From the NCBI RefSeq assembly GCF_047663525.1, contig NC_092587.1, forward strand, positions 188,995,457-189,059,456: DNA of 64,000 bases, read 5' to 3'. Position numbers and translations under genes: made by a program. The notes beneath the pieces were generated by a model, which worked only from the letters and a program-made list of their open reading frames with translations, was not told the DNA's origin and searched no databases. Every line of letters starts with the position of its first letter. Position 1 is the first letter of the stretch. The stretch comes from Anas platyrhynchos (lineage: Eukaryota). Shown in pieces: positions 5,301-64,000 of this stretch.

Positions 5301-5560
5301 CCCGCGGGGCTGAGGCGGGGAGGGAGCGGGGTTGAGGCCCCGGCGGGACGGGGACAGGGGGACACAGTGGGGGACACACGGGGACAAACAGGGATCTCCA
5401 CGGCGCTACGGGTGGCCAGAGCCCCCGCCGCTCTCCCCATGTCCGTGGAAAGGCGTGGAGAGGGGACCAGGAGGCAGCCACGGGTTTGGGGGGAAATGCG
5501 CCAAAAGGATGGCTGTGGGCACCTCAAGGCAAGGTCCCGGTGGGGAAGGGGGGTTCTCAT
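4740..5560. promoter_or_regulatory. MPHOSPH8: CpG island / MPHOSPH8 promoter and first exon. Contains GC boxes (gggcggggcgggg at 5220-5235), CCAAT at 5242-5246, and TGACGC (half-CRE) at 5265-5270, upstream of the minus-strand ATG at 5165
   Basis: Very high G+C and CpG density. The large ORFs on both strands here are GC artefacts. Motifs were read directly from the sequence. Confidence 0.75.
4905..5165 (-). CDS. MPHOSPH8: MPHOSPH8 exon 1 coding part: ATG at 5165..5163 (CCAAAATGG context), donor GAG GGG|gtgagtg at 4905/4904. Encodes Ala/Gly/Glu-rich low-complexity N-terminus plus the first half of the chromodomain
   Basis: In-frame with ORF 4689..5387(-). Strong GTGAGT donor. Splices in phase 0 to exon 2. 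Confidence 0.85.
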
Positions 5561-24800: not shown

Positions 24801-27800
24801 ATCCCTGCCTGTTGCAGGGGATTGGAATTAGATGATCTTTAAGGTCATTTCTAACTCAAGCCATTCTATGATTTGATGATTCTGTTTAGTTTCCCTTTTA
24901 AATCCACCAACTGATCATTTTGTTGGATAGCCTCTGATACCTAAGAGGTGAGAAACAGCAAATACTCATCCAAAAGTATTTTTTCTTGTCACTGAAATTC
25001 CTTTGGCCTAAATGCTGGCTTCACTTACAAATTATAGATTTCCAGAAGGAAGTCTAAACATGTGAAAGCACTTCTTTACTGTGCAGATGAGGGAGCCCTG
25101 GCACTGGTTGCCCAGAGAGGCTGTGGAGTCTCTTCCTTGTAAAACTCCAAAAACTGTCTGGATGTGGTCCTGGGCAGCCTGCTCTGTGTCCCTGCTTGAG
25201 CAGGGGTTAGGACCAGGTGACCTCCGGAGGTCCCTTCAAACCTCAGCCATCCTGTGATTCTGTGATTTTGTGAAGGAAATAATTTCCTCTCTTGTGCTGT
25301 GAGCAGGCAATGAGAGGCATGAACTCCAAAAGACAAATTTAGGAGGAAACACTGAAAAAATGTTCTTACACTTATATCTACTTAGCTTCAAAATAACAAC
25401 TTAAGCAATCACCTTAAACTAAACAGGAATTAATATTCAGATGTGGCTGTGCTTGTTACTAGGGAAAATAGGTCTAAATTATAGTCTAAATTATATAAAA
25501 AAATAATCTTAAAAGCTGGCTTAAAGAAAAAGAAAACAGGATGAAAGGTTGGATAACTTCTGCAATGATAAGCATTCCTTTTAAAGCAACATTGTTTAGA
25601 ATACAACCAAACTGATTTACTTACTGTAATAAACTCAGTTAGTGATGCCAGATCCTTTATGTTGCCCTTTGAAAATGGGGAAAATTCTATGAAATCTGTG
25701 AACAAAGATTGACATTAGGAACATTAAAATATTTAGCATGTGGCAACACTGCGGAAACACAAGTTTAAGTTTTATGACTAGAGTATCAGAGCAGAAATAT
25801 AGCATACTGCTACACGTTCCAGGTTGCAGTTCAGTGTATTAAGCTGGTCTGATAATAATGATGCACATAAAATTAAGTCTTGGCAAGAAGGTAAAAGGGG
25901 GCTCATAGTTAAAGAGGAAACAGAAACTCACTTGTGCCGAATTTGACTACATTCACATTTTGTCTGAAACGAAGTTGTTTCAAAGCGTGTAAGGCAATCT
26001 GCTTTGCTTCCCGTAACATTGCACCTGCCATGGAATTTGAGCAATCTAATAAAATAATAATTTCACTGGACAGCTGCTCATCATCAAACGCTGCTTCAAA
26101 CTCTGGTTGGAATACGAGCATGCAAGCCTACAGAGACAGAAACAAAATCAGTGCAGTGAGCAAATGCTATTGCATTCGAAGTGTACTCAAGCATCTTCAT
26201 TTTTCTCATTATGGAATGAGAACAACATACAGCCATATTTGAAAGTTTGAGTTAATATATTTAATTTAATCGCATTTAGTGAGAAGTGCAACTTCTCTAT
26301 CCTTTACATATACCTCAAGCCTCACATGAATAACTGAAAAAGGAATTATGATGTTCAATGTTTTTATCCGATTTACTCTTCGGCAAACAGCATTGGACTC
26401 TCTTCTCAAAGTTAAAAGAAAATCACAGATATTTTTTATAATCATCACTGCCACCATCAGTTTGTTTGAGGGACTAGAATTAAAAAATACATACATGCAA
26501 AGCAAAGAAATGCATATTGTCCTTGCTAAGAACAGAGATGCTATAAAACACAAAGGCTTTCAAAAGTGCAGCAATGAAATGCTGGAAGGAGTGAAAATGT
26601 TTCCAATAGCACAGAAAGGTTTGTAGTCTGGAAGCACAAACAGAAATGTTTTTCTTTTTCCTTTCCTCAGGGGAATATCTGTATTATTGAAGGCATGAAA
26701 CAAATGTCCCTGAACTAATCCTTTTAAACTAAACAATTCTTACTAAAAGAAGAAAAATAGGAGACATCATTGTCAAAAAGAAAACAATCTAATCTGTCGT
26801 TTTACTCCTTTTACTCAATTTCAGAATTGGATTGAGAGATTGTTAATACCAAGACTTTACATTTCACCTCTGCAGCATTTTCAAAATCAAAAAGCATCTG
26901 AAAATAGCTGGAAGTGCCACAGACTTCACTTTTATACCAGAAAAGAACAGCTGTGGTCACAAAAAATGGAGGAGGATGAAACAGTTTCTAATAACCTGGA
27001 ATCACATATTTTAAGATATGCTCTTAAATTCTAAATGTATTTATTTCTCAGGCAAGGAGTGGATGAAGGTAAAAAGAGGTTAAACCGTTCTTTTCTTTCC
27101 TATTCAACCTTTTGTTAATGTTTTCCAGTTGTAATAATGAGCTCTTCTGTGACACAGCTATTTGTCACATTCTGTTTGTAGCTGATACAGAGTGTTTGAA
27201 CTGCTTTCTGTGTCTTTTTCACTTGTTAGTAAAAAATATGAGATTTAAATGCCTTTGAAAATAATCACTGCAACAGTAATAACCACAGCAGAACACAATC
27301 TTCTAAGAAGGCCGTGTGCCTTAAAAACCCACTGCTGGGTTATATAAATATTTGTGTGAGAGTTGTAAATATTGTTACAAATATTATTGTAATATTATTA
27401 CAAATTTAATGATTTAAAATGTTATTTATTTTCTAGTTAGAATACAGACTGCATGACTCTGAAGCTACTTAGTTCCAGCCTCAGCCACAACTTATTTGTT
27501 CACTTCCATTTCTGTAAGTGCAACATCTGCATCAAACAGTGTAGTCACATTTCTATGAAATACAAACAGGAGCATGACAGTTAGAAAAAAAGTGTTTTAA
27601 CAGAGATATGATTGGACACTGCGTTGAAACTGTGCCTCAACTTTCAGTTTATTACAAGGCAAAGGATAAAATAAAAATCAACAAGATTCTATGGAACTGA
27701 AAACTAGTTTTTGAAGAATACTCAGTTTAATAAAGAGATTAAATAGAATACTGTCTATGGTGTGGAATTGTTCTTTCTTCATGGGCTACCCATCCAAATC

Positions 27801-36800: not shown

Positions 36801-39800
36801 TACCTGGAAAGAATTCCCATGAAATTGCGCACAGATGATGCATGGAATAAGGATTGAATATTTCCAAGACTGCCCAGAAATTCTGCTGTTTCACTTACTC
36901 TGCCAACACTATACACTTGTAAAATTCTCACTGGACGATCACTGCAAGAAATTTGAAATGATCTTTGACTTCAAAAACTTGTTTAAGAACAATATACTGC
37001 CAAGAGATAATGCCTTGTAGTAAATCTCAAAGTAACATTAAATCTTTGGTTTTGGTGGTTTTGGTTAGCAATTTGGGAGGCAAAAAAATATGATAACAGC
37101 AATAAGAGACAAAAAAAAAAAAAGATAACAGCAATTATTGAAAACACCAGAGATATTTAAAACCTATGACAAAGTTCAAGATTTATTCAGACATTCAGGG
37201 AGAAATAAAATATGCAAAGACGTAAAATGTAAAATACGTAAAGTCAGATGAAATTATCTCATTTGATATTTTGGAACTTAAATTCAAAGATGTGATGTAT
37301 AAAGCCCATATAACTCTATGCACTGCAGAGTCTGGCATTATATAAATTATTGCCAAATCTATCTTGTACTAAAAATTCTCCTACTGCGAAGGCTCAGATA
37401 ACTCACCATCTTGGCTGAACCATGAACATCTTAGCATGTTCAGGCTATCTGAATGTAGCAACTTGGACTTCCCAATTAAGAAATACACTTGCGAGGAGGA
37501 AAACTTAGGTTGCAATCCCACCTCCAGCAAGATTTATGCGTTTTACATACAGTAGTTACTGGGCAGAGCACACACCAGGATTCACGTCCTTCCCTTGTGA
37601 TTACACTAAGCAACAGATTCAGACTTCCAGACTTCTTTCCATTTTTCTTACCAGATGAATGCTTTATTTAGCTACTTGTATAGAGGCCCAAGTGGGAAAC
37701 TATGTGCTCACCACCTTCCTTCTGCTTTACCAGTTTGCTATGTACGTGTCTTTGGAAAATGCTTCCTCAGATGACAGAGCCTGGACTAGGGACTGGGTTG
37801 CTCAAGAGTGGCAAAGTAGCAGTGCTTTAAGAAATACCCAGAAGATAGTATGAGGATTCTAGGATTCCTGACTGTCACACAGTGAGGAACCTTAGGATTT
37901 ACAAAACAACTAAGTAGAGGACTTAGGGATCACAATTTTAAATTTAGATAAATAAAGTAGGCAGTACACTTGGAAAGTAAAAGCAAATCAAGCCTTTGCT
38001 TACAAGTCAGAGCTTCATGCTTTTAAGATTTAGTAAACTTCAGTGAGTCTTGAGTTCCTAAATGCTAAAACAATATTGGTAAAACAATATGCTAAACAAA
38101 ATGCTAAAACAATACTGGTAAACAATTTATAAATGTGCTATATGAACTTCATTTTTTTTTGAGAGAATTTGGACCCTTGAGCCTTTAGTATGTTTCTACT
38201 GCAGTTGATTTTTTATTTTTTTTGAGATTGCTTTTAGTTAAAACACTAAGTTTGCAAGTGCAGAGACTGAAAGGCACTAAATATGCTCCAATTCTTGCAA
38301 TTTAATTATGCTCTATTATCTGTCGTATAAAAAAAAGACAAAATTTTGGGTGAAAAATCCCATGCTTGTAACTAGTTAGAAGATCATAGAGCCTATGAAT
38401 TAGTTTATAGGCCCTAAATTTGATAACTGTGATCCACAAAGAGCAGTCCTGTGGGCTCACATAACAGCTAATTTCCAAAAGGCTTACTTAATTGGTTCTG
38501 TCTCAAAGAACTTTAAGGTGGAATTGAGTCACATAAACTCTTTCTATTAATTTTAAATGACTTCATTTAGACAAAATGTCAAGTACTCACAAGTACTGAA
38601 CTTTGCCAAAAACCAGCAGAAGGTTGCATGTTTGAGCACAGTGCTCCTTCCTATTTGAGCAATTTGGATTTGGGTACAACTGCTTAGTAACCAGCAGTTG
38701 CTAGGGTTTAGGCCTTAGCAAGGGCCTGAGCTGCTTAACGCTACATTTACTCAGTAAAAACAGACTTGAAGTGCTCACTATATAACTACCTGAAAGGAGG
38801 TTGCAACAAGGAGGGCATTGATCTCTTTTCTCAGTTGACAAGTGATTGAACACAAGGCAATGGCCTCGAGTTACACCAAGGGAGGTTTAGATTGGGTATC
38901 AGGAAGAATTTCTTCATGGAAAGGGTGGTTAGGCATTGGAACGGGCTGACCAGGGAGGTGACAGAGTCACCATCCCTGGAGGTATTTCAGAGCCATGTGG
39001 ATGTGGTGCTTAGGGACAGGGTTTAGTGGTGGATTTGGTGTTAGGTGACGGTTGGACTTGATGATCCTAAGGGACTTTTCCAACCTAAACAATTCTATGA
39101 TTCTATATAGCTGAACTGAAACCTACTCCATTCTTCTATGCATCAATGATTATTCATTGATTATTCAATTTCTAGAATGACATTCTCTTTAAATTTATTT
39201 CTCCATGTTTATCCATTTTTACATTTCATTAGTTAATCAAAAAACACAGGGTACCCAGTCAGAAGCCAATGTCAAGAACATTAAATAGAATAGGAGGCAA
39301 ATCCACAGAATAGATTCCAGGAAATACATGTTTCTCATACAACTGAAAGCTACCTGAAAAGGGACATCAAGTTCTGTAGATAATAAAAAGATGACCAGGT
39401 AGTCCACCTCTCCTCCCCACCTACTCCATCATATCTAATAATACACATAAAGAAATATTTGTTTTTCTCAGCAACCCCCTAAGTTTTATTTTGATGTTCG
39501 CTTTCCCTGTATTCTGTGAAATACCTGGTAATAAATATTGCAAAGCAGAATGAACAAGCCTAAAAGCCATATATCTTCTTGAAATAGCTACTATATATAG
39601 ACAGCTTTTCACAATCTGAAAAGGGGAAAAAATTAACAATCTCATTTTCAGTTTTCTGAATTTACTTCCATTGGTTCTAGTATAGGTTATGGCAAATATG
39701 CCTGCTCTGCAATCCCATTAGTTTGACACTGCATAGTAACACTGCATAGAACCTAATAATTCAGTCCTTTTTAGAGGTGTTTTATGCACCATACCTTGCA

Positions 39801-51800: not shown

Positions 51801-54800
51801 AGAGAAATAATCTCTACAATCCTTATTTCTTGACATGAGGCAAGATTAACACTCAACAACACTTACACCACTTAGTATTTTCCTTCTGAGATCTCAGAAA
51901 TAAATCTAGAACTTACCTTGCGATTAATCACATAATGAATTTCTCCACCATTTTCTTTTATGCATGCTCTTAGCCTGGTCTTCTCCTGAATGGGCAAGTT
52001 CCTCACTTTAACAAAGAACACACAGTCTGCAAAGATTGTCATTGCCCTTCTGTTAAGACAGAAAAAAGGGGTTTATTTTGACTAAGAAATCTTTCATTTC
52101 TACTACCTACCTAAGTAGTTTCTCACCAAATATTCCCTTTTCAACTCTAGGAAGTTCCACTACAAATCCCATTTTATCAGCATGGTAATCAAATTGACAA
52201 AGATTATCTCTTAATCAGTTTTATTCACTTAAAAAAATAGATACAGAAAATTATTTAGTGTGACTTAATTTTCAGTCAAGTCATGGCTTGAACTAATTGT
52301 CAAACTCATACCTTGACCTTTTGCTGTTAGTATCCACTGTTAGTAAAGTGGAACGATCTTAGTTTAAACTGGAACAACTCTCCTTCTGGTCCCCTTTCAC
52401 ATAGTATCATTATAAAACAACTGTTTTTTCAAGAATATGAACTATTTTTCATGTTTCTACTCAGTGTAATCTGTACATGTAATCTTTAAAAAATATAAAT
52501 TAAAAAGAACTTCAGTAAATTGATCCAGATTAAACACAGCCTAACTACATCAACAAAACCCACAAAAGGATACACCAAGAAATAAAAAACAACCCAGAAC
52601 AAGAGACTAGTTTAAATCCAGTTCTGTTTACTGATTGAATTCATTTCTGGCCTAGGGCAAAGATTTACGCAGGCACAAAGGAATGTAACAAAAATTTACT
52701 GTAACAAAGATTTACACAGGCACTGAAAGTGATGGAGGAGCAGGGGAGAGATGGATGTAGGGTGACTGCTGCTCTTCTCAGCCGTGTCAGCCTAAACTGT
52801 CTGTAAAATAAATCGAATGAAAATTGGCTGTATGTCATTTGTGACAAACTATGCCAAGATATTAGAGGCTGGGAAAGTTTTATTTAATCAGAAGCAGAAT
52901 TTATGACAACAAAATGTAAAGGTAGTCCCTAGTTTAAGCCACTACAATGCATAATCATTGCATATTCATTTTCCTGGAGACTTGTGAGTGTAAAATTATT
53001 CTTATTTTAAAAACTGATGACGAATGATAAAGAAAATGATAGTGTAAATGACAACACTACGCAGAGCACTGAGCTCTTTATACAGCATATCACAGCTTCA
53101 GCACATCACAGCTTTTCCAGGGTTTCAGAGCCTTTCACTGGTAAACAAAAGGGGTAAAACTAAGTGTGAGCTAGAGGACTTAGTGATAAAGTGAGTTCAC
53201 AGAGAACCTCAAATTAATTTCCCCACTACACATATTTGAAGCATCGTGCCCAATTTAGTTTTCTCGGAAAGGCATTCAGACAGTATGCCACAAAACCACT
53301 TTGGGAACTCCTGACAACCAAAAGATTTGCCTTAAATTTGCATTGCTGCTCCAAGCCAAACTGCTAATGCTACAGGAACTAATATAAAGAGAATGTATGC
53401 TTGTAAAGCAAACTATTCAGATCATAAATTCTTTTTTTGAATGATTATTTGGCTGCCAGTAAGCCATGGCCATATTTCAGCAGGGGGGGGGGGTTAGTAT
53501 CAGTGTCGTTGGTAAAAACTTGTTTTTACTCAAATTGTTTATATTTCTGAAAGGGCTATTTGATAATGTAAATTTTCCACAGTGACTTAAGGACAAATAC
53601 TTTTAAATGTGGGATAACTGGAGAAAAAAAAAAAAAAAGACGATCCAAAGTATTTGGCCTCTCCAATTTCATCCTGAAATCACAGAATGCGGCAAAACAA
53701 ACAAGAAATTGCTTGTTTGAAAATAAACATAGTTCTTCTGTCGGCCAAAAATGTCAGAAATTAACTGCCCTCTCTCTTGGACAAGCCATTCAGAGCAAAA
53801 ATGCCATTTCTCCAAATTGATGAGAGCTCCCACATACATGGCAGATTGTGGTTAAGCTCCTGTCCTTCTACTCCTAGAAACAAACAATGATGTTAAAAAC
53901 CTCAAAAAGGAAAGCAGAAGCTGTTTGAACTACTTTCATTTACCACTTTATATTTTTATGTGCTATGTTAGAACTGTTTCTGTAGCAGTCTTTTAGGACT
54001 AAAATCTAACCTGTCACTGAATTACCCAACCGGTTCTTCTGGCTTACAAATTCATATTGATCACCAATATTGGCACCAATGCCTTTACAAGGCCAACAAA
54101 GCTTTTACATCAAATCTGTTCATTTTTGATTTAGTGTTGAGAGAAAACAACCCAAAAGATATTAACAAGGCAGAGAAAATTTTTAAGTGACGCTGACCAT
54201 GGCATTTCAAAAGTGGTGTGTTTTAACCCTGGTAAGCAGCTAAGCTTGCCAGTCCCTCACTGCCCCTCACTCTCAGCTGGATGAAGGGAAGGGAGTCAGA
54301 AGGCAAAAGTTAGAAACCTCCTGGGTTGAGATAAAGCCAGTTTAGGAAAGGAAAAACAAAAACCAACCAACCAAAAAAAAAAAAAAAAAAGAAACAAAGA
54401 TGGAATATGTGTATTTTCTTACTCTATGGCATATTGGATTTTCAGTGAATGCAAATAAAGCTGTTCTTCACTGCAGTAAAAACTCTCAGATGGCCAGAGA
54501 CGGGGGCAACAAAATTCATTTGAACTTAGGGTTTCAGGAAAACCTAGAAAATCAACACTATCAGACACAATTATATATATATATAAAGTCTGATTTCATA
54601 CAGGTAATCTATAGGAAGGGACCCCAAATCATCTACTACCCTACACATCTGAGAGAACTGGCAACACTGCAGTGATGATACATGTGTTTAGGTGAGGCAG
54701 ACAGCAGATCAAGGATCAAAGGACACATGAAATCACTATACACTTATATTTTGTGACTCTTGTGTTCTGCTGTCTGGCATTACCAGTGGTTTTGCCATAA

Positions 54801-57100
54801 AAGTACTCTGCTCACACACACAAAAATCCCCTACCTCTTCTTCCTGTATTTTAACAAGGAGGTTTTTGCAAGATAGTACGTCATCTGAGGTGGCAATGAT
54901 CTTTTAAGATGCAGCCATATAATTTGGCTTGGGTAGATTAATTTGTATCATATATAAAGGCAAATGTACCACTGCCAAAAGTTTCCCTTATTAAAACCAT
55001 CGTGTTGGTCTGGGCACTGCCTCCCTTTGCACTGCAACACTGCAGGCACCAAATTTCTCAGCATATTCTCTACAGCAGCGTCTGGATATTGCTCAAGTTT
55101 CCAGAAGTTGTCTCCTCAGGAAACAATGAATTCTATTCACACAGCCTAAACACACAGCTTATTAGGAGGGTAATGAAATAGTACTAGTTATCGCAAACAT
55201 CATCCCAACCAATACATCCCTCTTTCACACAGAAACTTGAGAAGCAACTGAATTTGTAGCTCACATGTGGTACAAAACCTCACAAAAATATTTTATATTG
55301 TGCTTGCTTATGAAAGCTATGCAGCTAGGAACAAAGAAAAAAAATCTTGAGAGAAGTAATCTGTAAATAAACCGTGGTGTCGACCAGGAAGCAGAAAGGA
55401 ATGTAAAAATTTGAGGGAACAGCAGATTCACTTCGCTAAGTTTGTCTGCGAAGTGAAGACCCCCCTCACCCCTTCTCTGCTCCCAGCATGACAGCTATTA
55501 AATGACCCCGATCCCACTCCTCTCTTTAGGGTTTGGGTGAAAAACTGTTTACACTCACCCGCTCTGGCAGTTCCTCTTCCTGAACGATCTTCCTGCTTCC
55601 TCAACAGGGCAAAGTGCAACCGGAGCGCTGGGTGGAGGGAGGTAGGAAAGGTTGGGGCATGCACATATCTGCCTGCAAAATGCCCGAAGGTACAGCTACA
55701 GCAATTGTGACCCTGTCAAATAAAGAAACCAAGCAAAGTGCAGCCAACGGAACAGTAAGGAGCAGCAGCTCTCGCTGTGCTTGAAGGAGGAAACTCACTG
55801 TTAAAGTGAAAGTGAGCTTTGAAATACCGTACAGACAGCTGGAAACGTAGCTGGAGCCTGTGCTGTCCCTCCTCAGCAATTCTTCCCTCCTTTCAGTGAA
55901 AAGGACCTTATTCTTCTTCTTTACTGACCACTGAATATCAGCCTCTCTTCTTTCTCCTATCTCCCTGGAGAATCAAGCATCTCATGGAGTTTTAGCAAAG
56001 TGTTTGGCTTTACTCCTTTTGAACTGCAAACTTTCCCAAATTCAAAATCAGAACAGAGAATGATTATATTTAACATGCATGTTGAGAATTAACAGCTCGT
56101 AAACACTTTTATAGCTGATAAGAAAGCTATGCAAAGGAAAACTGCTGACAATTGCTCCTGGTTTAATTCTTACAGTTTTAATTTAGCTTGGTAGAGATCC
56201 CTAAGGCCCTTATGACCTCAGAAGTTGCATGAACTTGTAGTTATGTAGTTATGTAGTTAACTTGTAGTTATCAACCTGCAAGTTAGGGATCGTTGTCAGC
56301 AATGGACTGCGCTCCTAGCATGGAGAGGGAGCCCAACGTAATTTTTTGTCGACCAAAACCAGACCGTGAACAACCCTGAACCCTGTCAGGCCATCAGTGT
56401 GCAGGAATACTGAAAGCAAAGCTTTGCTGTATTTTCATGAGGATGTCAAGGGATTATACACGATGCTGTGCTTTTAAAAGGCACGGGTAGAAATCCTCTT
56501 TCCCAGCTCAGTAGCTCCCCTTGTTAAGGCAGAACCCAGCCGCAGGGCAACCATGCAGGTGATGTGTTTAGAACCACAGAATCATGAAGGTTGGAAGAGA
56601 CCTCCAAGATGGTCCAACCATCCCCCTACCACCACTGTCACCCACTAACCCACGTCCCCAAGCACCACGTCCAACCTCGCCTTGAACACCCCCAGGGACG
56701 GTGACTCCACCACCTCCCTGGGCAACCCGTCCCAGTGCCTGACTGCTCTTTCTGAGCAGAAATGTCTCCTCATTGCCAACCTGAACCTCCCCTGGCGCAG
56801 CTTGAGGCCATTCCCTCTGGTCCTATCACTGGTTATCTCCGAGAAGAGCCCGACCCCATCTCCCCACAACCCCTCTCAGGCACCTGCAGAGAGCAATGAG
56901 CTTCCCCCAAGCCTCCTCTTCCCCAGCGAACCCAGCCCCAGCTCCCTCAGCCGCCACGCGGAGCCCCTCGGGAGCCGTAGTTCGCGCCCCGCGGGGCCGC
57001 CCGCCAGCTGGGCGGGGAGGCCGTGCCTCGGGACTACAACTCCCGGCATGCCCGGCGAGTGGCGCCGGGAGGCTGTGAGATGGCGGCAGGTTTGTAACAA
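6900..57100 (-). CDS. PARP4: PARP4 (vault poly(ADP-ribose) polymerase / VPARP) gene span. CDS from ATG 52042 to stop 7357-7359. 29 coding exons resolved
   Basis: An ordered minus-strand exon chain gives BRCT, PARP catalytic ([17 protein letters not shown]), VIT ([24 protein letters not shown]), VWA with MIDAS ([11 protein letters not shown]) and a C-terminal [14 protein letters not shown]...[16 protein letters not shown] segment. All are collinear with human PARP4. Splice phases are consistent across exons 2-18. Confidence 0.9.
6944..6949 (-). promoter_or_regulatory. PARP4: Candidate PARP4 polyadenylation signal (AATAAA on minus strand = plus-strand tttatt), ~410 nt 3' of the stop. Alternatives at 6689-6694, 6678-6683 and 5954-5959
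   Basis: Hexamer occurrence only. No EST support is available from sequence alone. Confidence 0.25.
7357..7507 (-). CDS. PARP4: PARP4 last coding exon incl. stop TAA at 7359..7357 ([49 protein letters not shown]; MVP-interaction region)
   Basis: Acceptor tttcatttctatacacag|T. Matches human NIPWAFEAIKQASEWVRRTEGQYPSICPRLELGNDWDSATKQLLG. Confidence 0.85.
8758..8804. repeat. AT-rich decamer tandem repeat (ACTAATTATT-like x4-5)
   Basis: attactaattattaactaattattactaattataactattactaatg. Confidence 0.8.
8849..8981 (-). CDS. PARP4: PARP4 penultimate coding exon ([43 protein letters not shown])
   Basis: Acceptor cttctttag|GC (phase 1). Donor TCA AG|gtatgc (phase 2). Matches human [44 protein letters not shown]. 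Confidence 0.8.
11894..11995 (-). CDS. PARP4: Candidate PARP4 exon ([34 protein letters not shown])
   Basis: Acceptor cctcttcag|GAA and donor AAT CAG|gtacag, both phase 0 and compatible with flanking exons. Homology not confirmed from memory. Confidence 0.45.
12517..13179 (-). CDS. PARP4: PARP4 large C-terminal-region exon (221 codons; [29 protein letters not shown]...[15 protein letters not shown]...EFTEGTKVS). Low-complexity Ser/Pro-rich region
   Basis: ORF 12388..13206(-; TTG pseudo-start). Acceptor ttttactaaacag|GCA at 13180-13182. Donor TCG|gtaagt at 12517/12516. CPVFQ motif matches human GSRCPVFAFQSSDTESDE in the large PARP4 exon. Confidence 0.8.
13754..13847. repeat. (AGAATA)n hexanucleotide microsatellite, ~15 units (expanded CR1 3' tail repeat)
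   Basis: Perfect tandem aatagaatagaat... read directly from the sequence. Confidence 0.95.
13848..14440 (-). mobile_element. CR1 LINE fragment (ORF2 C-terminal RT region + 3' end), tail microsatellite expanded
   Basis: ORF 13919..14425(-) ...[60 protein letters not shown] is the canonical CR1 ORF2 C-terminus. GGAAGGGACC end abuts the (AGAATA)n repeat. Confidence 0.85.
16367..16506 (-). CDS. PARP4: Probable PARP4 exon (…[46 protein letters not shown]), boundaries approximate
   Basis: ORF 16325..16531(-). Similar to human SKENSLITQFTSFVAVEKRD. Candidate acceptor ccttacaatcag|AC and donor AAG|gtcatt. Alternative donor at 16342. Confidence 0.35.
19190..19340 (-). CDS. PARP4: Probable PARP4 exon within ORF 19189..19434(-), boundaries unresolved (candidate phase-0 acceptor cacacctcccatcttcag|GCT)
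   Basis: The reading frame stays open and shows weak similarity to the human MIHKLAARALIRDYEDG...KKQTLKSLIIKLSKE region. Exact donor not determinable by eye. Confidence 0.3.
19466..19546 (-). CDS. PARP4: PARP4 exon 27 ([27 protein letters not shown])
   Basis: Acceptor ccttttag|GCC. Donor GGA ACA|gtgagt. Matches human [27 protein letters not shown]. Confidence 0.75.
19958..20128 (-). CDS. PARP4: PARP4 exon 26 ([57 protein letters not shown])
   Basis: ORF 19910..20149(-). Acceptor ctttacacag|ATA. Donor ACT CAG|gtaaag. Matches human IEDQMTRLCSPSCHSVSVKWQQLNPDVPEALQAPAQVPSLFLNDRLLVYGFIPHCTQ. Confidence 0.85.
20203..20270. repeat. (AAT)n microsatellite followed by A-rich/(CAA)n low-complexity tract
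   Basis: caataataataataataataaaaaacaaacaacaacaaaaaaaaaaaacaaaacc. Confidence 0.9.
21283..21382 (-). CDS. PARP4: PARP4 exon 25 ([33 protein letters not shown])
   Basis: Acceptor tgttgttag|T (phase 2, joins ...GVG|G SAANRH). Donor ACA AAG|gtacgc. Matches human STANRHVLRILSQCGAGVFEYFNAKSKHSWRK. Confidence 0.75.
22245..22348 (+). mobile_element. CR1 LINE 3'-end fragment
   Basis: gatctagtggaaggtgtccctgcccatggcagg...tcccttccaacctaaaccaatctatgattctgtgatt matches the CR1 3' terminal consensus and ATTCTRTG tail. Confidence 0.6.
23965..24152 (-). CDS. PARP4: PARP4 exon 24 ([63 protein letters not shown])
   Basis: Acceptor cttttcag|TCA. Donor GTT GG|gtaagtac. Matches human [63 protein letters not shown]. 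The intervening exon 23 was not found. Confidence 0.8.
24640..24885 (+). mobile_element. CR1 LINE 3'-end fragment
   Basis: ...ccatccttggagatgttcaaggacaggttggatgggaccctgtgcaacatcatccagtgggtggcatccctgcc...gatctttaaggtcatttctaactcaagccattctatgatttgatgattctg. Confidence 0.7.
25080..25280 (+). mobile_element. CR1 LINE 3'-end fragment
   Basis: ...tggatgtggtcctgggcagcctgctctgtgtccctgcttgagcaggggttaggaccaggtgacctccggaggtcccttcaaacctcagccatcctgtgattctgtgatt. Confidence 0.65.
25932..26127 (-). CDS. PARP4: PARP4 exon 22 (VWA domain with MIDAS DxSxS: [65 protein letters not shown])
   Basis: ORF 25909..26121(-). Acceptor tctgtctctgtag|GCT. Donor ACA A|gtgagt. Matches human [10 protein letters not shown]...[29 protein letters not shown]. 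Confidence 0.9.
27873..28010 (-). CDS. PARP4: PARP4 exon 21 ([46 protein letters not shown])
   Basis: ORF 27786..27980(-). Acceptor ccccttccag|AAA. Donor AGT GAG|gtatgg. Matches human [46 protein letters not shown]. Confidence 0.85.
28450..28531 (-). CDS. PARP4: PARP4 exon 20 ([27 protein letters not shown])
   Basis: Acceptor tgtttttag|T (phase 2). Donor ATA AAG|gtaaac. Matches human QSFSLTMSIEMPYVIEFIFSDTHELKQK. The preceding exon 19, expected between 28.6 and 31.1 kb, was not found. Confidence 0.75.
31119..31283 (-). CDS. PARP4: PARP4 exon 18 ([55 protein letters not shown])
   Basis: Acceptor tttttag|GAT. Donor ACG CAG|gtttgt. Matches human [55 protein letters not shown]. Confidence 0.85.
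31791..31877 (-). CDS. PARP4: PARP4 exon 17 ([29 protein letters not shown])
   Basis: Acceptor tttcatag|GTT. Donor CCG|gtacgt. Matches human EIKEKEEAQQEYLEAVTQGHGAYLMSQDAP. Confidence 0.85.
32118..32249 (-). CDS. PARP4: PARP4 exon 16 (VIT domain: [44 protein letters not shown])
   Basis: ORF 32085..32285(-). Acceptor catttcag|GTG. Donor GGA AAG|gtaaga. Near-identical to human [44 protein letters not shown]. Confidence 0.9.
33421..33468. repeat. 24-bp tandem duplication (ttggctaacttttattagctaatt / ttggctaacctttaatagctaatt)
   Basis: Read directly. Two units, 22/24 identical. Confidence 0.85.
33947..34071 (-). CDS. PARP4: PARP4 exon 15 ([42 protein letters not shown])
   Basis: Acceptor ttgtttag|GC (phase 1). 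Donor GCA CAG|gtaaag. Matches human AKTSSSTKAGLQDASGNLVPLEDVHIKGRIIDTVAQ. Confidence 0.8.
34601..34763 (-). CDS. PARP4: PARP4 exon 14 (catalytic domain end: [54 protein letters not shown]; catalytic Glu in DEF)
   Basis: ORF 34527..34775(-). Acceptor ctcttccag|GAT. Donor GAA A|gtaaga. Matches human [30 protein letters not shown]. Confidence 0.85.
35506..35689 (-). CDS. PARP4: PARP4 exon 13 ([61 protein letters not shown])
   Basis: Acceptor tttgcatatag|T. Donor TTC GAG|gtactg. Matches human STSIKYSHPGETDGTRLLLICDVALGKCMDLHEKDFSLTEAPPGYDSVHGVSQTASVTTDFE. Confidence 0.85.
35905..36003 (-). CDS. PARP4: PARP4 exon 12 ([33 protein letters not shown]; PARP signature G-x-G-I-Y-F)
   Basis: Acceptor tttttccctccag|A. 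Donor GTC AG|gtgtgg. Matches human [32 protein letters not shown]. Confidence 0.9.
36804..36941 (-). CDS. PARP4: PARP4 exon 11 (catalytic domain start: [45 protein letters not shown]). Contains an H-A-S variant of the H-G-S motif
   Basis: Acceptor ttcttgcag|T. Donor TCC AG|gtaaaa. Matches human SPVDVLQIFRVGRVNETTEFLSKLGNVRPLLHGSPVQNIVGILCRG. Confidence 0.85.
38790..39095 (+). mobile_element. CR1 LINE 3'-end fragment (ORF2 C-terminus + tail)
   Basis: ...gggtggttaggcattggaacgggctgaccagggaggtgacagagtcaccatccctggaggtatttcag...ttccaacctaaacaattctatgattctatat. Encodes the ...[20 protein letters not shown]1 motif. Confidence 0.75.
39838..39998 (-). CDS. PARP4: PARP4 exon 10 ([53 protein letters not shown])
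   Basis: Acceptor ttattttgtag|CTC. Donor TAC AA|gtgagtg. Matches human LIRDMVNVCETNLSKPNPPSLAKYRALRCKIEHVEQNTEEF. Confidence 0.85.
40429..40447. repeat. poly(A) tract (~19 nt). Similar homopolymers: T17 at 4350-4366, T19 at 4710-4728, A16 at 13695-13710, G11 at 53483-53493
   Basis: Homopolymer runs read directly. Some likely mark decayed retroelement tails. Confidence 0.9.
41936..42109 (-). CDS. PARP4: PARP4 exon 9 ([58 protein letters not shown]; PARP regulatory helical region)
   Basis: ORF 41918..42109(-). Acceptor tctcttaaag|GTG. Donor TGT CAG|gtaact. Matches human [38 protein letters not shown]...LCQ. Confidence 0.9.
44006..44143 (-). CDS. PARP4: PARP4 exon 8 ([46 protein letters not shown])
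   Basis: Acceptor ttttactacag|TTA. Donor AAT GAT|gtaagtt. Matches human [46 protein letters not shown]. Confidence 0.85.
45411..45560 (-). CDS. PARP4: PARP4 exon 7 ([50 protein letters not shown]). The 3' boundary implies a GC donor
   Basis: Acceptor tcaatttacag|GAT. Matches human QFAIKKTSEDASEYFENYIEELKKQGFLLREHFTPEATQLASEQLQ. Phase 0 is required by the next exon, so the boundary falls at AAG|gcttgt (GC-AG intron). Confidence 0.7.
46307..46420 (-). CDS. PARP4: PARP4 exon 6 ([38 protein letters not shown])
   Basis: Acceptor ctccattcag|ATT. Donor ACC AAG|gtatgag. Matches human QEAVVVELQCSRDSRDCPFLISSHFLLDDGMETRR. Confidence 0.85.
46981..47059 (-). CDS. PARP4: PARP4 exon 5 ([26 protein letters not shown])
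   Basis: Acceptor ttctattctag|A. Donor GAA AAA|gtaagcc. Matches human [14 protein letters not shown]. Confidence 0.8.
48142..48265 (-). CDS. PARP4: PARP4 exon 4 (linker: [40 protein letters not shown])
   Basis: Acceptor ttgattgcag|GT. Donor CTC AG|gtaaaatg. Phases 1->2 link exons 3 and 5. Low-conservation linker, weaker homology. Confidence 0.7.
48350..49100 (-). mobile_element. CR1 LINE fragment (ORF2 [20 protein letters not shown] region)
   Basis: ORF 48671..48943(-) [28 protein letters not shown]...[36 protein letters not shown] = CR1 RT motifs ([13 protein letters not shown]; [19 protein letters not shown]). Confidence 0.8.
49228..49390 (-). CDS. PARP4: PARP4 exon 3 (BRCT domain: [54 protein letters not shown])
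   Basis: Acceptor tgtctttcag|TGTACA. Donor CAA G|gtgaca (phase 1, consistent with next exon). Matches human QCTHIILDNADVLS...IANPDFIWKSIREKRLL. Confidence 0.8.
49870..50575 (+). mobile_element. CR1 LINE fragment (ORF2 RT region to near 3' end). Inverted relative to the CR1 at 48350-49100
   Basis: ORF 49875..50075(+) ...[51 protein letters not shown] = CR1 ORF2. Downstream ...EHWA..NKMKFNK..CKVLHLGRNN-like coding remnants. Confidence 0.8.
51917..52049 (-). CDS. PARP4: PARP4 exon 2 (first coding exon; CDS 51917-52042; [42 protein letters not shown])
   Basis: Acceptor cttaacag|AAGGGCAATG. ATG at 52042..52040. Donor CGC AAG|gtaagt at 51917/51916. Homologous to human MVMGIFANCIFCLKVKYLPQQQKKKLQTDIKENGGKFSFSLNP. 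Confidence 0.85.
54190..54375 (+). mobile_element. LTR-like interspersed repeat fragment (avian ERV-LTR-type family, ...taaccctggtaagcagctaagc...ggttgagataaagccagttta...)
   Basis: Shares two sequence blocks with the element at 62590-62880. Family assignment is from memory of avian LTRs, not a database hit. Confidence 0.4.
56575..56885 (-). mobile_element. CR1 LINE 3'-end fragment abutting the PARP4/CENPJ CpG island
   Basis: Plus strand ccacagaatcatgaaggttggaagagacct... is the reverse complement of the CR1 tail. ORF 56645..56869(-) ...[60 protein letters not shown] = CR1 ORF2 C-terminus. Confidence 0.75.
56884..57030 (-). other. PARP4: Candidate PARP4 non-coding exon 1 / TSS region inside the CpG island (possible donor CTGCAG|gtgcct at 56884/56883)
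   Basis: The first coding exon begins with an acceptor at 52049, so a 5'UTR exon must lie upstream. The only CpG island upstream is here. Exact ends are not determinable. Confidence 0.2.
57033..57057 (+). promoter_or_regulatory. ZNF143/Staf-binding-site (SBS)-like motif with ACTACA extension: ACTACAACTCCCGGCATGCCCGGCG
   Basis: Matches the ACTACAN + TTCCCAGAATGCATTGCG-type consensus (TCCC..CATGC...GCG). This motif class is typical of bidirectional CpG-island promoters. Confidence 0.55.
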
Positions 57101-57199
57101 GGCGGAGGGGGCAGCGCCGGGGGGAGCTGGCGCCGTGCGGGTGCCTGAGGGGTGGGCGCAGCGGCCGCTGTGAGGGCGACGGGGGCAGCGGGGCGCTGG

Positions 57200-60100
57200 G
57201 CGTGTGGGGAGGTTCAGCGAGGGTTGAACAAGGGTCGCTGTGATCTGATCCCTCGGGAATGAGGAAAGTTTAAAAAGTTGTTCCCTGACCCGCAGGGCTG
57301 TTGGGGACTCGGGCTCCTGCGGTCGCGTCCTTTGTTCTGTAGCCCTACCTCTGTGCTCCCTGCGGCACGACACACGACAAACGACACACGACACAGCGAC
57401 ACGACATACCGTGTGTGGAGGTGAAGAGTTAATCGCCCTGGGACTCGTTAGAGGTAAGCAGAGCCGAGTGATAATGATAAAAGATGATGGGAAGGGGAGG
57501 GAGAAGCTCACAGGCAGCAAGGGCACAGAATTTCCATGAGAATGATGCAAAGTGTGCATCGAAATACACACAGAAACAGGATCGTATTTATATGGACATA
57601 ATTACAACACTGCTTTCACACGAGGATCCTATAATGGGTGTCTCTCACCTTATCAAATCCCTTCCCTCTTCTTCTGTTGCAGACACTTGTAAATTCAGAA
57701 CCCGTCTCTGTACTACTGAACAGGATACCATACACAGCTCTGTAATATTTGAGGCATTACTTTTTTTGAGTGCAGTTACTATTAAGATTAAATATTGGAT
57801 TGTGCTGGTTTCCTTCACAGGAATTTCATTAGCAATTGTCTGAGTTGTTTCTATTGCCTAGGGAAAAGTAGACGGTGACTGTTTTTTAACTTTAGTTATA
57901 AGAGAGTAACTTCCTGTTACTGTAGATTTCTCATTTTGTATATCTGCTTCATTTCTAGGTGCTAAAAATAAGTAATCATCCACGCCAGGTTCCTATGGCT
58001 TTGAAAATTTTGCTGTCCTAACACTCCAAGATATAATAGTGTTATGTTGTCGCTGTATCAGCAAGTAGATGTGAATACCATTTACAAGATGCCAGCTGTT
58101 GAAGATCTGAGTAGTGAACGAAACTTCCTTGCACATTGCATGTTTGATAGTTCTCGTGCCGGAGTCTTCTTGGATCCTACTTTCGCTGGTTTGAAAATCA
58201 ACACAGACAATTTATTATCTGGACATGAAAACATCCCGGCTTTCCCTGCTGAAGGGTTGCATCTTTCAGAGAGCCGTTCTGTAAGTGATGACTCCTTGTG
58301 TGAAGAACAGATGCTGGAGCCTGGCAGCTCTTGTACACTTCAGCAGGATACCGCTGAAACATCTCTTCCAGCAGCAGCATATAACGTAGAAAGCTCTAAA
58401 ACAGACTTTGTCCGTGGTGAAGTGGATGGTCGGAATAAATCCGATTGTTGTGATCCTCTCTTACAGAAGCTTGAACAGGTAACAAAAAGCTCTAGAATTC
58501 TTTGACATACATAAATTAGGATTTATGTTGGTCCTATATATGATTCTTCATACCTGAAATTATGCAAAATCTTTTCCATGTATGGAACACAGTAGGCTTA
58601 AAGAGCAAGCCCTTGGTCAGTTATGCATGCATAAAGGTTGGTGTCCTCCTCACAACGTGCAGTTTAACTGGTTTTTACTGGCACAGGTTCCAGTTCAAAA
58701 TGAATTGTATTTAGTGCCAGCATACTTGTTCTCAAATTTTTTTTTTTTAACCTGGAAAGATGCACATAGTTTTACAGAATTCCATTATTTCTTCACTTAA
58801 AGCTGTGCAATGGGGTGCTGGTCATTACAGTGGGAGTGCTTCAGTGCAGAAATTCACAACACAGTGAAGTTGTGTGTTCTTGTAGCTATAGCAACATCTG
58901 CCGTTAGTTCTCATTGTATGTGTGTCTGCACCCTTATACCTGGTTCTGTTTAGTTGAAGAGAGAAGTTGGTGTTGAATATAGACATGTCCGAGACAATAG
59001 GACAAAAAGGCCTGGAATTACAACCCTGTGATGTTACTTTTTTTTTCTTTCCAAAGCAAGCCTGCCAGCTGATCCGCTGTGACTGGCAATACATTTGCTT
59101 ATAGCTCTCCCCAGTAAGCAGATATAAATTACGTTAGCTGAAGGTATTAAGGCGCACTTTAATAGGTCTTGCTGTTTAGGATGAAGAACTCAATTCCTTG
59201 TCCACCCTTCTAGAAGTTGCCTCATTGCAAATCTTTGTTTGTGCAAGTGAAAGTGTGGGGGGCAAAGAGTGAACCTCTAGAGTATAATTCCACAGCTAAG
59301 CTTATAAAAGGTATTTCATCCCTGTTCTATATGTAAGAAAAATATTCATTCACTGTTTTCGTTATGTCAGTAGCATCCAGCAGTGGCTAACTAACACACA
59401 TTATCTGATTAAGGGTATCTTAAGGGGAATTGTTAAGTCTCCTGTCTTGGAAAGTCATTGACAATCTAATATATGTTATGTATATTTTTAAAATAATTGT
59501 TAACTTACATCTAATATTGATTTCCAAGATCTCAGATAGACTGAAGGTTACTGATACATACATATAAAGAATACTGATATATATACATTTCTAAAGCTCT
59601 CTTGATTTTGAGGTATTTCACGTTTTAATAAAACCACCATGTCCAAGTTATGTTAAAAGAGCAGAATTCAAATGTTTTTCTAATACTATAAAAATGATTG
59701 TTCTAATTCCTTTTGTTTGCAGGTTGGTCAATTAAAAATGAATGGATTTGTTGACTGTGCAAACTGAAAATAGTATGTGCAATCTGTAGATAGAACTGAA
59801 AATTGTGTTCATCAAAGCACTTTGTATTCTTAATTTCCATCATGTTGCACTTAGCTAATGGAACATCATTAAAACAAGAAATACCTGTTGTCGTGACGAT
59901 TCTAATGTTGTGGTGCGTTCTAGGTATATTTGTCTTAAGTACAATAATGTAAATAAATGTCCTCCAGTACATTTTTTTTGTTTGTTTGAAAAGCTGAAGG
60001 AATTGCAACAACAGAAGCAGGAACAGCTAAAGAAACAACAGATGGAGCAACTTCAAAGGCTTGTGGAAGAACAGCAGAAGCTACTTAGCATGGTGTCTGA

Positions 60101-63100: not shown

Positions 63101-64000
63101 ATGGGTCAATGAGAAAAGCAGTGAAAGGAAAAACAGCAAAACCTGCATAAAGGTGCTTCTAGATGTGTATTAATTATAGCAGGGATTTGATAACCACTTC
63201 TCAAAAGATAAGCGACTAGTGGTATCATTTCTCGAATTAACTTTGCCACTTAATGACTAAAGTACTTCATAATTCGTCATTTTTTATGTAATTGCGCCCT
63301 AGGCCATTGAATAGTTGGGATGCTAAACGCAGTTAAATTATGTAGACATGTAAGACTTGATTTTTTGAAATTACCCTAGACCTATTAAAGCTGCGATTCA
63401 AGAGAAGAAACAGACATTTGAAGAATTTCTGGAAGAACAGATACAGATAGAGGAGCAGCGTCTGAAGCAAAGCCAGAAATTACAGGTTTTTAAATTTCTT
63501 TTGTAACTTTTAACGCTTTTTTTTAAATACAGTATATAGTGATGAATGCTTTAAAAACATACAAGATTCTAGCATCAAAAGCTAACACTGATTGCAATAT
63601 TCACATTTGAAGATTTTACTTTAAAATAAAAAAAAAAAAGTCCTGACTACTTCATTTGTTTAAGATGTTTTTAGAAACCCAGTAGAAATATGCTATGTAA
63701 GTTCCTACTGATATGTGGGGTTTATTTGGAAAAAAATAATCTTAAAACCGTGTAAAGGACTTTCTAACATTCTCTGCGTGTTAATTTTCCATATCCACTT
63801 TCAGGAGACAAATGGATCAGCCATTCAAAAGCCAGTGATCAAACGACCCTTCCTGAAAAGAGGAGAAGGTTTAACAAGGTTCACTAATGCCAAATCTAAG
63901 ATAACAATGCTTGGAGAAAGCGTGTTGAAACCTCCACAAAGGGTTTCAGATGACAGAAACGTTAGAGTGGACAGATCACAAATACAAAAGAAAAGCCTGC
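57200..64000 (+). CDS. CENPJ: CENPJ (centromere protein J / CPAP) gene, 5' portion (exons 1-6; continues beyond window end)
   Basis: Spliced translation [29 protein letters not shown]...DPLLQKLEQ|[42 protein letters not shown]|...|[36 protein letters not shown]|[32 protein letters not shown]... is collinear with human CENPJ (RAGVILN...[46 protein letters not shown]...[32 protein letters not shown]...[20 protein letters not shown]). Confidence 0.9.
57300..57453 (+). other. CENPJ: CENPJ non-coding exon 1 (5'UTR). Donor GTTAGAG|gtaagc at 57453/57454. 5' end (TSS) not determinable
   Basis: Strong GTAAGC donor at the island edge. The downstream exon 2 has an acceptor before the ATG. Confidence 0.4.
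57366..57410 (+). repeat. Imperfect (CGACACA)n / (ACACG)n repeat in the CENPJ 5'UTR/promoter edge
   Basis: cacgacacacgacaaacgacacacgacacagcgacacgacatacc. Confidence 0.8.
58062..58478 (+). CDS. CENPJ: CENPJ exon 2 (CDS 58089-58478; 130 codons starting [36 protein letters not shown]...)
   Basis: ORF 58044..58505(+). Candidate acceptor tcgctgtatcag|C at 58061/58062. ATG 58089. Donor GAA CAG|gtaaca at 58478/58479. Confidence 0.85.
59994..60117 (+). CDS. CENPJ: CENPJ exon 3 ([42 protein letters not shown])
   Basis: Acceptor ttgtttgaaaag|CTG. Donor CTT G|gtaagttg. Conserved coiled-coil segment. Confidence 0.9.
61888..62035 (+). CDS. CENPJ: CENPJ exon 4 ([50 protein letters not shown])
   Basis: Acceptor caattttgtag|GA (phase 1, matching exon 3). 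Donor GAA AG|gtaattc. Frame matches ORF 61839..62039(+). Poorly conserved region, so less certain. Confidence 0.75.
62590..62880 (+). mobile_element. LTR-like interspersed repeat (same family as 54190-54375) in CENPJ intron 4
   Basis: tgtggtgggttgaccccagccagcagctaagcacccagcc...gtgggtagagaataaagacagtttactaactgaaggaaagagg resembles common avian ERV LTR sequence. Confidence 0.45.
63380..63485 (+). CDS. CENPJ: CENPJ exon 5 ([36 protein letters not shown])
   Basis: Acceptor ttaccctag|A. Donor TTA CAG|gttttt. Matches human [32 protein letters not shown]. Confidence 0.9.
63805..64000 (+). CDS. CENPJ: CENPJ exon 6 (large exon, truncated by window end: [65 protein letters not shown]...)
   Basis: Acceptor atccactttcag|GAG. 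Matches human [29 protein letters not shown]...MDRQQLQRK. Confidence 0.85.

Follow-up and report, generated by a model that had tools for sequence, protein, structure and literature searches.

A bird-conserved ZNF143/THAP11-type promoter core predicted between the head-to-head genes PARP4 and CENPJ in the duck

Introduction

ZNF143 sites are enriched in bidirectional promoters, in which a single Staf/ZNF143 binding site (SBS) drives both directions (PMC3082894). The 18-bp SBS has the consensus YWCCCRNMATSCMYYRCR (PMC5006282), and the composite class known as SBS2 consists of ACTACAN followed by the 18-bp SBS (PMC3627581). Within SBS2, the ACTACA module belongs to THAP11/HCFC1 and is dispensable for ZNF143 binding (PMC3627581, PMC5006282). 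The same literature describes the M4 motif of Xie et al. 2005 (PMC5006282), written here as ACTAYRNNNCCCR. In this study we analyze an SBS2-type element at 57033-57057 of a 64-kb stretch of duck DNA (Anas platyrhynchos, contig NC_092587.1, positions 188,995,457 to 189,059,456; the window), which lies in a CpG island between the divergent genes PARP4 and CENPJ. The element had been noticed in an earlier inspection of the letters without database searches (the sequence-only reading). Our analysis suggests that it is part of a bird-conserved promoter core with two divergent M4 arms, a GC box and a YY1-like element, and that a CR1 retroelement has taken the place of the island's PARP4-side half in this genome.

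The closest described elements are the mammalian SBS2 ZNF143/THAP11/HCFC1 sites (Ngondo-Mbongo et al. 2013, PMC3627581). The duck element has the same 25-bp layout of ACTACAN plus 18-bp SBS and shares with them the CCCR at positions 3-6, C12, the terminal GCG, the CpG island setting and an adjoining Sp1-type GC box. It differs in being avian and predicted from sequence, in carrying G instead of Y at SBS position 15, and in its partner arm, which is M4-like with a degenerate SBS half. The promoters of TMEM186-PMM2, PARP2-RPPH1 and the two-SBS BUB1B gene (Anno et al. 2011, PMC3082894) resemble the locus as TATA-less CpG islands with one or two SBS preceded by RRACTACAN. In the first two, head-to-head genes share a promoter, as PARP4 and CENPJ would; BUB1B is a cell-division gene, as is one partner here, CENPJ. 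The PARP4-CENPJ region differs from these ZNF143 bidirectional promoters by its divergent inverted pair of elements, by the conserved 51-bp spacer between them and by the replacement of one flank by CR1. Bidirectional promoters are defined by head-to-head genes with start sites <1 kb apart, and PARP4-CENPJ is likened to them from gene orientation and the island, the two start codons lying 6047 bp apart.

A literature search found no paper that links CENPJ or PARP4 to ZNF143 or describes a shared promoter of both. At the sequence level the locus has what defines SBS2 and M4 sites, and its predicted architecture is standard, that of an ordinary ZNF143/THAP11-type CpG-island promoter. The CR1 replacement of the PARP4 flank is its one mildly unusual feature.

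Results

Gene calls were built on stop-free frames that we compared with Pfam and PDB. On the plus strand, CENPJ is recognised by the frame at 63712-63999, which hits the Pfam family Tubulin-bind_CPAP (3e-8) and, in PDB, 5itz_D 'Centromere protein J' (1.2e-9). On the minus strand, PARP4 is represented by exons with BRCT, PARP catalytic, VIT and VWA domains in Pfam, the BRCT match including the region of the start-codon exon, and by a last coding exon (7360-7527) that matches residues 1657-1706 of PARP4 in PDB (7.7e-14). The PARP4 start-codon exon (51917-52049, minus strand) aligns with human PARP4 residues 3-42 (PDB 9dev_A, 4.4e-8). It has its ATG at 52042-52040, an acceptor with a polypyrimidine stretch 7 nt 5' of that ATG and the donor AAG/gtaagt (slashes mark splice junctions). 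The CENPJ start-codon exon (58062-58478, plus strand), with its ATG at 58089, 27 nt after the acceptor tatcag/C, and the donor CAG/gtaaca, has 13 bird homologues, and the exons downstream of it match CPAP. PARP4 exons thus reach up to 52049 and CENPJ exons begin at 58062, confirming that the two genes lie head to head; both gene identities and their orientation agree with the sequence-only reading. In mouse the two genes are apparently neighbours, but they are not known to be adjacent in human. No Rfam RNA and no recognised coding exon was found between them. Splice acceptors stand just 5' of both ATGs, and therefore each gene would have at least one non-coding upstream exon. The ~400 bp that the sequence-only reading gave as the distance between the two gene starts is a putative figure.

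The window is vertebrate-like in base composition (GC 0.38, CpG observed/expected 0.26) and contains no more than two CpG islands, one at 4700-5500 and one at 56900-57500. The latter is the sole island between the PARP4 and CENPJ start-codon exons, in line with the single island that had been described there. The interval 56880-57460, given earlier as the extent of the island, has a GC content of 0.67, a CpG observed/expected ratio of 0.82 and 53 CpG; about 75 bp of it are CR1 sequence. A motif census detected no TATAWA or CCAAT box in the island or core and no match to ETS, NRF1, cyclic AMP response element (CRE), E2F or cell cycle genes homology region (CHR) motifs in the core. Rfam gave no family at gathering score anywhere in the 64-kb window. 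A distal element of the small nuclear RNA type (RNA polymerase III type 3), which would combine the SBS with an octamer and a PSE and have a small RNA gene about 200-250 bp downstream of the SBS, was considered for the site and rejected, as no Rfam RNA gene is present.

The element ACTACAACTCCCGGCATGCCCGGCG was read at 57033-57057 on the plus strand, exactly where it had been reported. It consists of ACTACAA (57033-57039), an instance of the ACTACAN extension, directly 5' of the 18-bp Staf/ZNF143 site CTCCCGGCATGCCCGGCG (57040-57057). ZNF143 motifs were scored against the published IUPAC consensus as a stand-in for a quantitative matrix. By this proxy, the element agrees with the 25-bp SBS2 consensus (PMC3627581, PMC5006282) at 24 of 25 positions, the single mismatch being the G at SBS position 15. 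The SBS half matches YWCCCRNMATSCMYYRCR at 17 of 18 positions, with CCCG at positions 3-6 and C12 present. The motif is the only match in the window to SBS2 with <=3 mismatches (0.02 expected) and the only one to SBS1 with <=1 mismatch (0.14 expected). Across 3000 dinucleotide shuffles of the island, SBS2 with <=3 mismatches never occurred and SBS1 with <=1 mismatch occurred twice, while a mononucleotide model gives an expectation of 6e-7 for SBS2 with <=1 mismatch. Judged by these models, the SBS2 match in the island is far beyond chance. Sites of this class are expected within about 500 bp upstream of a start site, and this one lies in the sole CpG island between the two start-codon exons.

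The earlier assignment to the class of an SBS plus ACTACA is borne out by the 24 agreeing positions, and the motif withstood a ZNF143 scan made by consensus and not by matrix. The label 'ZNF143-type ACTACA motif' stands in part: the match to SBS2 is sound, while the literature gives the ACTACA itself to THAP11/HCFC1 and not to ZNF143.

A second, inverted element of M4/THAP11 type, ACTACGGCTCCCGAGGGGCTCCGCG, lies at 56957-56981 on the minus strand, with its M4 match at 56969-56981. The M4 pattern has 3 exact matches in the window against 0.33 expected. Two of these fall in the island, at 57033-57045 (plus) and 56969-56981 (minus), and point away from each other; two M4 matches arose in none of the 3000 island shuffles. 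Together they make up an inverted repeat, the sole one in the core, whose arms are separated by 51 nt. As read from these matches, the 57033-57057 site belongs to a conserved divergent pair; the sequence-only reading missed its partner, as well as the GC box between the arms and the YY1-like block beside them. The minus element keeps CCCR, C12 and the terminal GCG and lacks the MAT core of the SBS. It is predicted to serve well as a THAP11/M4-type site, and for ZNF143 it would be weak at best. The third exact M4 match, ACTACAAATCCCA at 52159-52171 (plus) in the first intron of PARP4, some 110 nt away from the exon with the start codon, was set aside as a probable chance match because its surroundings are AT-rich and it has no SBS half.

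This composition of the pair bears on which factors use it. The elements may act mainly as THAP11 (Ronin)/HCFC1 growth and cell-cycle sites, with ZNF143 secondary or competing, in which case 'ZNF143 site' would be a mistaken main label: both arms fit the THAP11 site ACTACANNTCCC as well as M4, one arm only is a good SBS, and ACTACA is the module assigned to THAP11/HCFC1 and not required by ZNF143. On the other hand, mammalian THAP11 sites are all reported to have an overlapping ZNF143 site physically joined to them (PMC3627581), and an account centred on THAP11 leaves the conserved SBS half of the plus arm (GCATGC...GCG) unexplained. We regard a mainly THAP11-driven pair as possible, though rather unlikely, and prefer a composite core for ZNF143 and THAP11/HCFC1.

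A peptide query from CENPJ exon 2 returned 13 bird-like open reading frames (ORFs) in public assemblies, and of their contigs only one, L005, spans the motif. With the translation of a spurious GC-rich ORF that spans the island as query, we recovered L018, L019, L020 and L021; two more, P0023 and P0024, came from a profile search of 1.84 billion representatives. The aligned set consists of the window and the five sequences L005, L018, L019, L020 and L021, all apparently avian. Both elements are present in 6 of 6 aligned birds, always divergent and with motif 5' ends 52-53 nt apart. Both are also encoded in the translations P0015, P0023 and P0024, and the two motifs can be read in nine apparently avian sequence versions in all, six of them as aligned DNA. 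The absence of the motif from other birds, which the sequence-only reading had allowed for, was not borne out. In the six-sequence alignment, invariant columns number 18/25 in the plus SBS2 (57033-57057), 16/25 in the minus element (56957-56981) and 30/37 in the YY1-like block (57062-57098, plus strand), compared with 13/51 in the spacer between the arms and 15/57 in the left flank. Conservation also covers the SBS-specific half of the plus arm (GCATGC...GCG). At 57057/57058, between SBS and YY1-like block, the window is without 18 bp (…GCGCCGGGGCGGTGCCCAGCC…) that 5 of 5 other aligned birds have; given this length difference, the spacing of SBS and YY1-like block is apparently not constrained.

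Nearly all of the other bird contigs (L001-L004, L006-L011) break within the GC-rich island and do not reach the motif; the short-read assemblies among them (L001-L004, L007-L009) end at differing points before the promoter core. GC-rich avian promoters are known to drop out of short-read assemblies. Spurious ORFs called across GC-rich islands proved a usable handle for fetching orthologous promoters. A metagenome-wide scan with the 19-mer GATGGCGGCAGGTTTGTAA yielded six matches, all of them bacterial chance matches and none orthologous.

Between the M4 arms lies an E-box, CAGCTG, that overlaps the GC box GGGCGGGG at 57005-57017 (the E-box/GC-box string being CAGCTGGGCGGGG). The string is identical in L005 and L018, agrees at 12-13 of 14 positions in L020 and L021, and at 8 of 14 in L019. 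A second GC box, CCGCCC, was found at 56997 in the motif census.

The best-conserved block of the region, GCCGGGAGGCTGTGnGATGGCGGCAGGTTTGTAA (GCCGGGAGGCTGTGaGATGGCGGCAGGTTTGTAA), occupies 57062-57098 on the plus strand and includes a YY1-like GAGATGGCGGC, an ATG at 57080 and a donor-like CAG/GTTTGT. At 57077-57087 the YY1-like sequence matches 10 of 11 positions of AAnATGGCGGC on the CENPJ sense strand. Allowing <=1 mismatch, the YY1-type pattern AAGATGGCGGC has only two matches in the window, this one and one on the start codon in the other island. The YY1 motif is described as AAgATGGCggcg (PMC4669652), and the Puffin model treats YY1 as a core-promoter element (bioRxiv 10.1101/2023.06.27.546584). 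The duck sequence is alike in its highly conserved ATGGCGGC core on the CENPJ sense strand. It differs in the 5' AA, for which the window has GA and the other birds have GC (GCGATGGCGGC), and in being fused to an invariant GGTTTGTAA. Since the 5' AA reads GC in other birds, the block is assigned to YY1 only tentatively.

If it lies in an unspliced CENPJ leader, ATGGCGGCAGGTTTGTAA (57080-57097) reads as a 5-codon upstream ORF, MAAGL followed by a stop. The sequence GGCAGGTTTGTAA is invariant in eight sequences, including the ends of L004 (1-33) and L009 (20-45). These two, both at contig ends, keep GGCAGGTTTGTAA without the ATG of 57080, which bears on the idea of a conserved upstream ORF. CAG/GTTTGT at 57089/57090 is a weak donor of 5.6 bits; note that donor scores in this study come from an approximate matrix. 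As GTTTGT is a poor donor, splicing offers no ready reason for the conservation of GGCAGGTTTGTAA.

A second conserved block on the CENPJ side, at 57425-57470 on the plus strand, contains the donor GAG/GTAAGC at 57453/57454, with 10.2 bits the strongest plus-strand donor of the island. Its GAG/GT and about 45 nt upstream are kept in six species (the window, L001, L004, L005, L007 and L021). Because this donor is both the strongest and conserved, a non-coding CENPJ exon 1 most likely ends here. In the same CENPJ-side half of the island, the window carries about 5 tandem copies of the heptamer CACGACA (57366-57402) in a form that the related birds do not have.

On the PARP4 side, a 5'-truncated fragment of the long interspersed nuclear element (LINE) CR1 occupies 56569-56953, with its sense strand being the minus strand. 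Its extent was obtained by blastn to the CR1 copies at 13983-14227 and 38823-39105 of the window, and it contains a frame for the C-terminus of CR1 ORF2 at 56648-56875. The 3' tail, ATTCTGTG near 56575, reads ...CATGATTCTGTGG on the minus strand at ~56575 and is of the ATTCTRTG type that is canonical for CR1. The truncated 5' end is 3 bp from the inverted M4 element. A CR1 had been placed at 56575-56885; the fragment is real, and its span is corrected to about 56569-56953.

No counterpart of this CR1 was found in L005, L018, L019, L020 or L021, and orthology with L018 and L021 resumes at ~56555. In the other birds, some 780-800 nt separate the minus element from this point, the first ~350 nt having 10-13 CpG per 100 nt, and no part of this ~0.8 kb of CpG-rich PARP4-side DNA was found anywhere in the 64-kb window. 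P0018, with 15 member sequences from independent assemblies, encodes the same junction between core and CR1, and the junction is therefore not a local mis-assembly. As judged from this comparison, the PARP4-side half of the island is replaced by CR1 in this genome. LINE insertion with loss of target DNA is a known phenomenon, as are retroelement-derived first exons. The locus fits the former in that a 5'-truncated CR1 in PARP4 sense stands where other birds have ~0.8 kb of promoter-proximal DNA. The difference may stem from a loss in this genome or from a gain in the other birds, and the CR1 would be at most a candidate exon.

The CR1 lies downstream of any PARP4 start driven from the island and would therefore be leader or intron sequence, not upstream promoter. 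The proposal of the sequence-only reading that part of the PARP4-side promoter derives from the retroelement is to be amended accordingly. A conserved exon-1 donor for PARP4 beside the core was sought, and no position is common to all birds examined. GTGAGGAG comes closest; L005, L018 and L021 have it at about +320, in the region that is missing from the window. Further out, 55560-55650 on the minus strand is a candidate exon of the PARP4 leader, with the donor CGG/GTGAGT at 55559 (last exon base at 55559-55560). With 10.0 bits, no other minus-strand donor from the island to the PARP4 exon with the start codon reaches its class of >=10 bits. L018 has CAG/GTGAGT at its place, within a conserved stretch (55480-55800, minus strand, against L018 8895-9225) of 77% identity versus ~69% in the surrounding intron. 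The 55559-donor exon may be a further PARP4 leader exon or an alternative first exon.

These features permit a tentative history, which we consider rather unlikely: the CR1 insertion would have removed ~0.8 kb of the PARP4 half, and PARP4 would since have been transcribed from what is left of the core, by way of a leader exon and donor recruited from CR1, e.g. CAG/GTGCCT at 56884. If true, the locus would be a natural experiment in which the M4/SBS core of 140 bp suffices by itself for transcription towards PARP4.

Alternatively, the promoter may serve CENPJ only, with PARP4 starting elsewhere, e.g. at the exon with the 55559 donor, and with the inverted M4 driving only unstable upstream antisense transcripts. 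In favour of this, CR1 (56569-56953) adjoins the inverted motif, the ~0.8 kb of CpG-rich DNA of other birds is gone, minus-strand donors near the island are all weak, and the strong donor at 55559 is kept in L018. However, the inverted motif is intact in this species despite CR1. Moreover, the interval 55.5-55.8 kb is not a CpG island (1-2 CpG per 50 nt) and shows no recognisable promoter motifs, and the 55559 exon may equally be an internal exon of the 5' untranslated region fed from the island. A promoter restricted to CENPJ is thus unlikely in our view.

Passive conservation, whether through a low rate of change or through biased gene conversion in a GC-rich island, with the motif as a by-product of composition, is highly improbable: the whole island is alignable among birds and GC-rich avian promoters evolve unusually, but columns are 64-81% invariant in the motifs against ~25% in spacer and flank of the same island, 0 of 3000 shuffles gave two M4 matches and 0 of 3000 gave SBS2, and motif spacing and orientation are held despite nearby indels, including the 18-bp indel beside the SBS.

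Discussion

Taken together, the region is likely to be the core of a TATA-less CpG-island promoter between the head-to-head genes PARP4 and CENPJ, conserved in birds and composed of two M4 arms, a GC box and a YY1-like element. The proposed core has four parts and spans ~140 bp (56957-57098). Its CENPJ-facing arm, a near-perfect SBS2, would be a composite site for ZNF143 (on the 18-bp SBS) and THAP11/HCFC1 (on ACTACA-N2-TCCC), and its PARP4-facing arm would be a good THAP11/M4 site and a weak SBS. Between the arms stands a putative Sp1/KLF-type GC box, followed beyond the CENPJ-facing arm by the YY1-like GATGGCGGC on the CENPJ sense strand with the invariant GGTTTGTAA attached.

On this model, the island would be opened, and initiation stimulated both ways, by Sp-type factors and by ZNF143, which would compete or cooperate with THAP11/HCFC1. 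The strand-specific YY1-type element would set the CENPJ start just upstream of ~57077, between ~57058 and 57077, and CENPJ exon 1 would run to the donor at 57453/57454 and then be spliced to exon 2 at 58062. Since CR1 has replaced ~0.8 kb of the island, any island-driven PARP4 transcript would begin in CR1-derived sequence. The model is drawn by analogy with mammalian promoters: ZNF143 stimulates initiation (PMC11754675), its peaks favour a position ~70 bp upstream of the start site, and THAP11/HCFC1 compete with it on SBS2 through the ACTACA part (PMC3627581). ZNF143 and Sp motifs are symmetric and non-strand-specific, whereas YY1 is strand-specific and conserved just downstream of start sites (bioRxiv 10.1101/2023.06.27.546584). 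We infer factor binding, start sites and bidirectionality of the core from this combination of motifs and literature. Co-regulation of PARP4 and CENPJ is speculation.

Several observations weigh against a core that serves both genes in this way. The PARP4-facing arm, without its MAT core, has mismatches to the SBS at 4 of 18 positions and 5 mismatches to SBS2. The best minus-strand donors within 400 bp of the core reach 5.1-5.9 bits, and all of them are inside CR1, while the strong conserved donor at 55559 is 1.4 kb from the core. On the CENPJ side, the altered 5' AA of the YY1-like element counts against its assignment.

The analysis gives a concrete promoter core for CENPJ/CPAP, which is involved in centriole duplication and microcephaly, and for PARP4 of the vault particle. 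It would extend the mammalian ZNF143/THAP11/HCFC1 SBS2 design to birds, with conservation at the level of single bases. With one flank exchanged for CR1, the locus may be seen as a small deletion experiment of nature on a predicted bidirectional promoter. Current models are left unchallenged by the PARP4-CENPJ promoter core.

The second CpG island of the window, at 4700-5500, covers a GC-rich first exon on the minus strand whose start codon lies in a YY1-like AAAATGGCGGC at 5158-5168. Its gene is presumably MPHOSPH8-like; the chromodomain exon at 558-812 (minus strand; Pfam Chromo, 9.6e-12) resembles MPHOSPH8. The element at 57077-57087 and this start codon are alike in their AAGATGGCGGC-type match. 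Only ~2 kb separate the promoter at 4700-5500 from 7360-7527, the last coding exon of PARP4. The introns of PARP4 contain several more CR1 fragments, at 13717-14455, 24711-25130, 38823-39105 and 48.3-50.5 kb, and the copy at 13.7-14.5 kb has a long frame for the ORF2 C-terminus and an (ATTCT)-rich tail.

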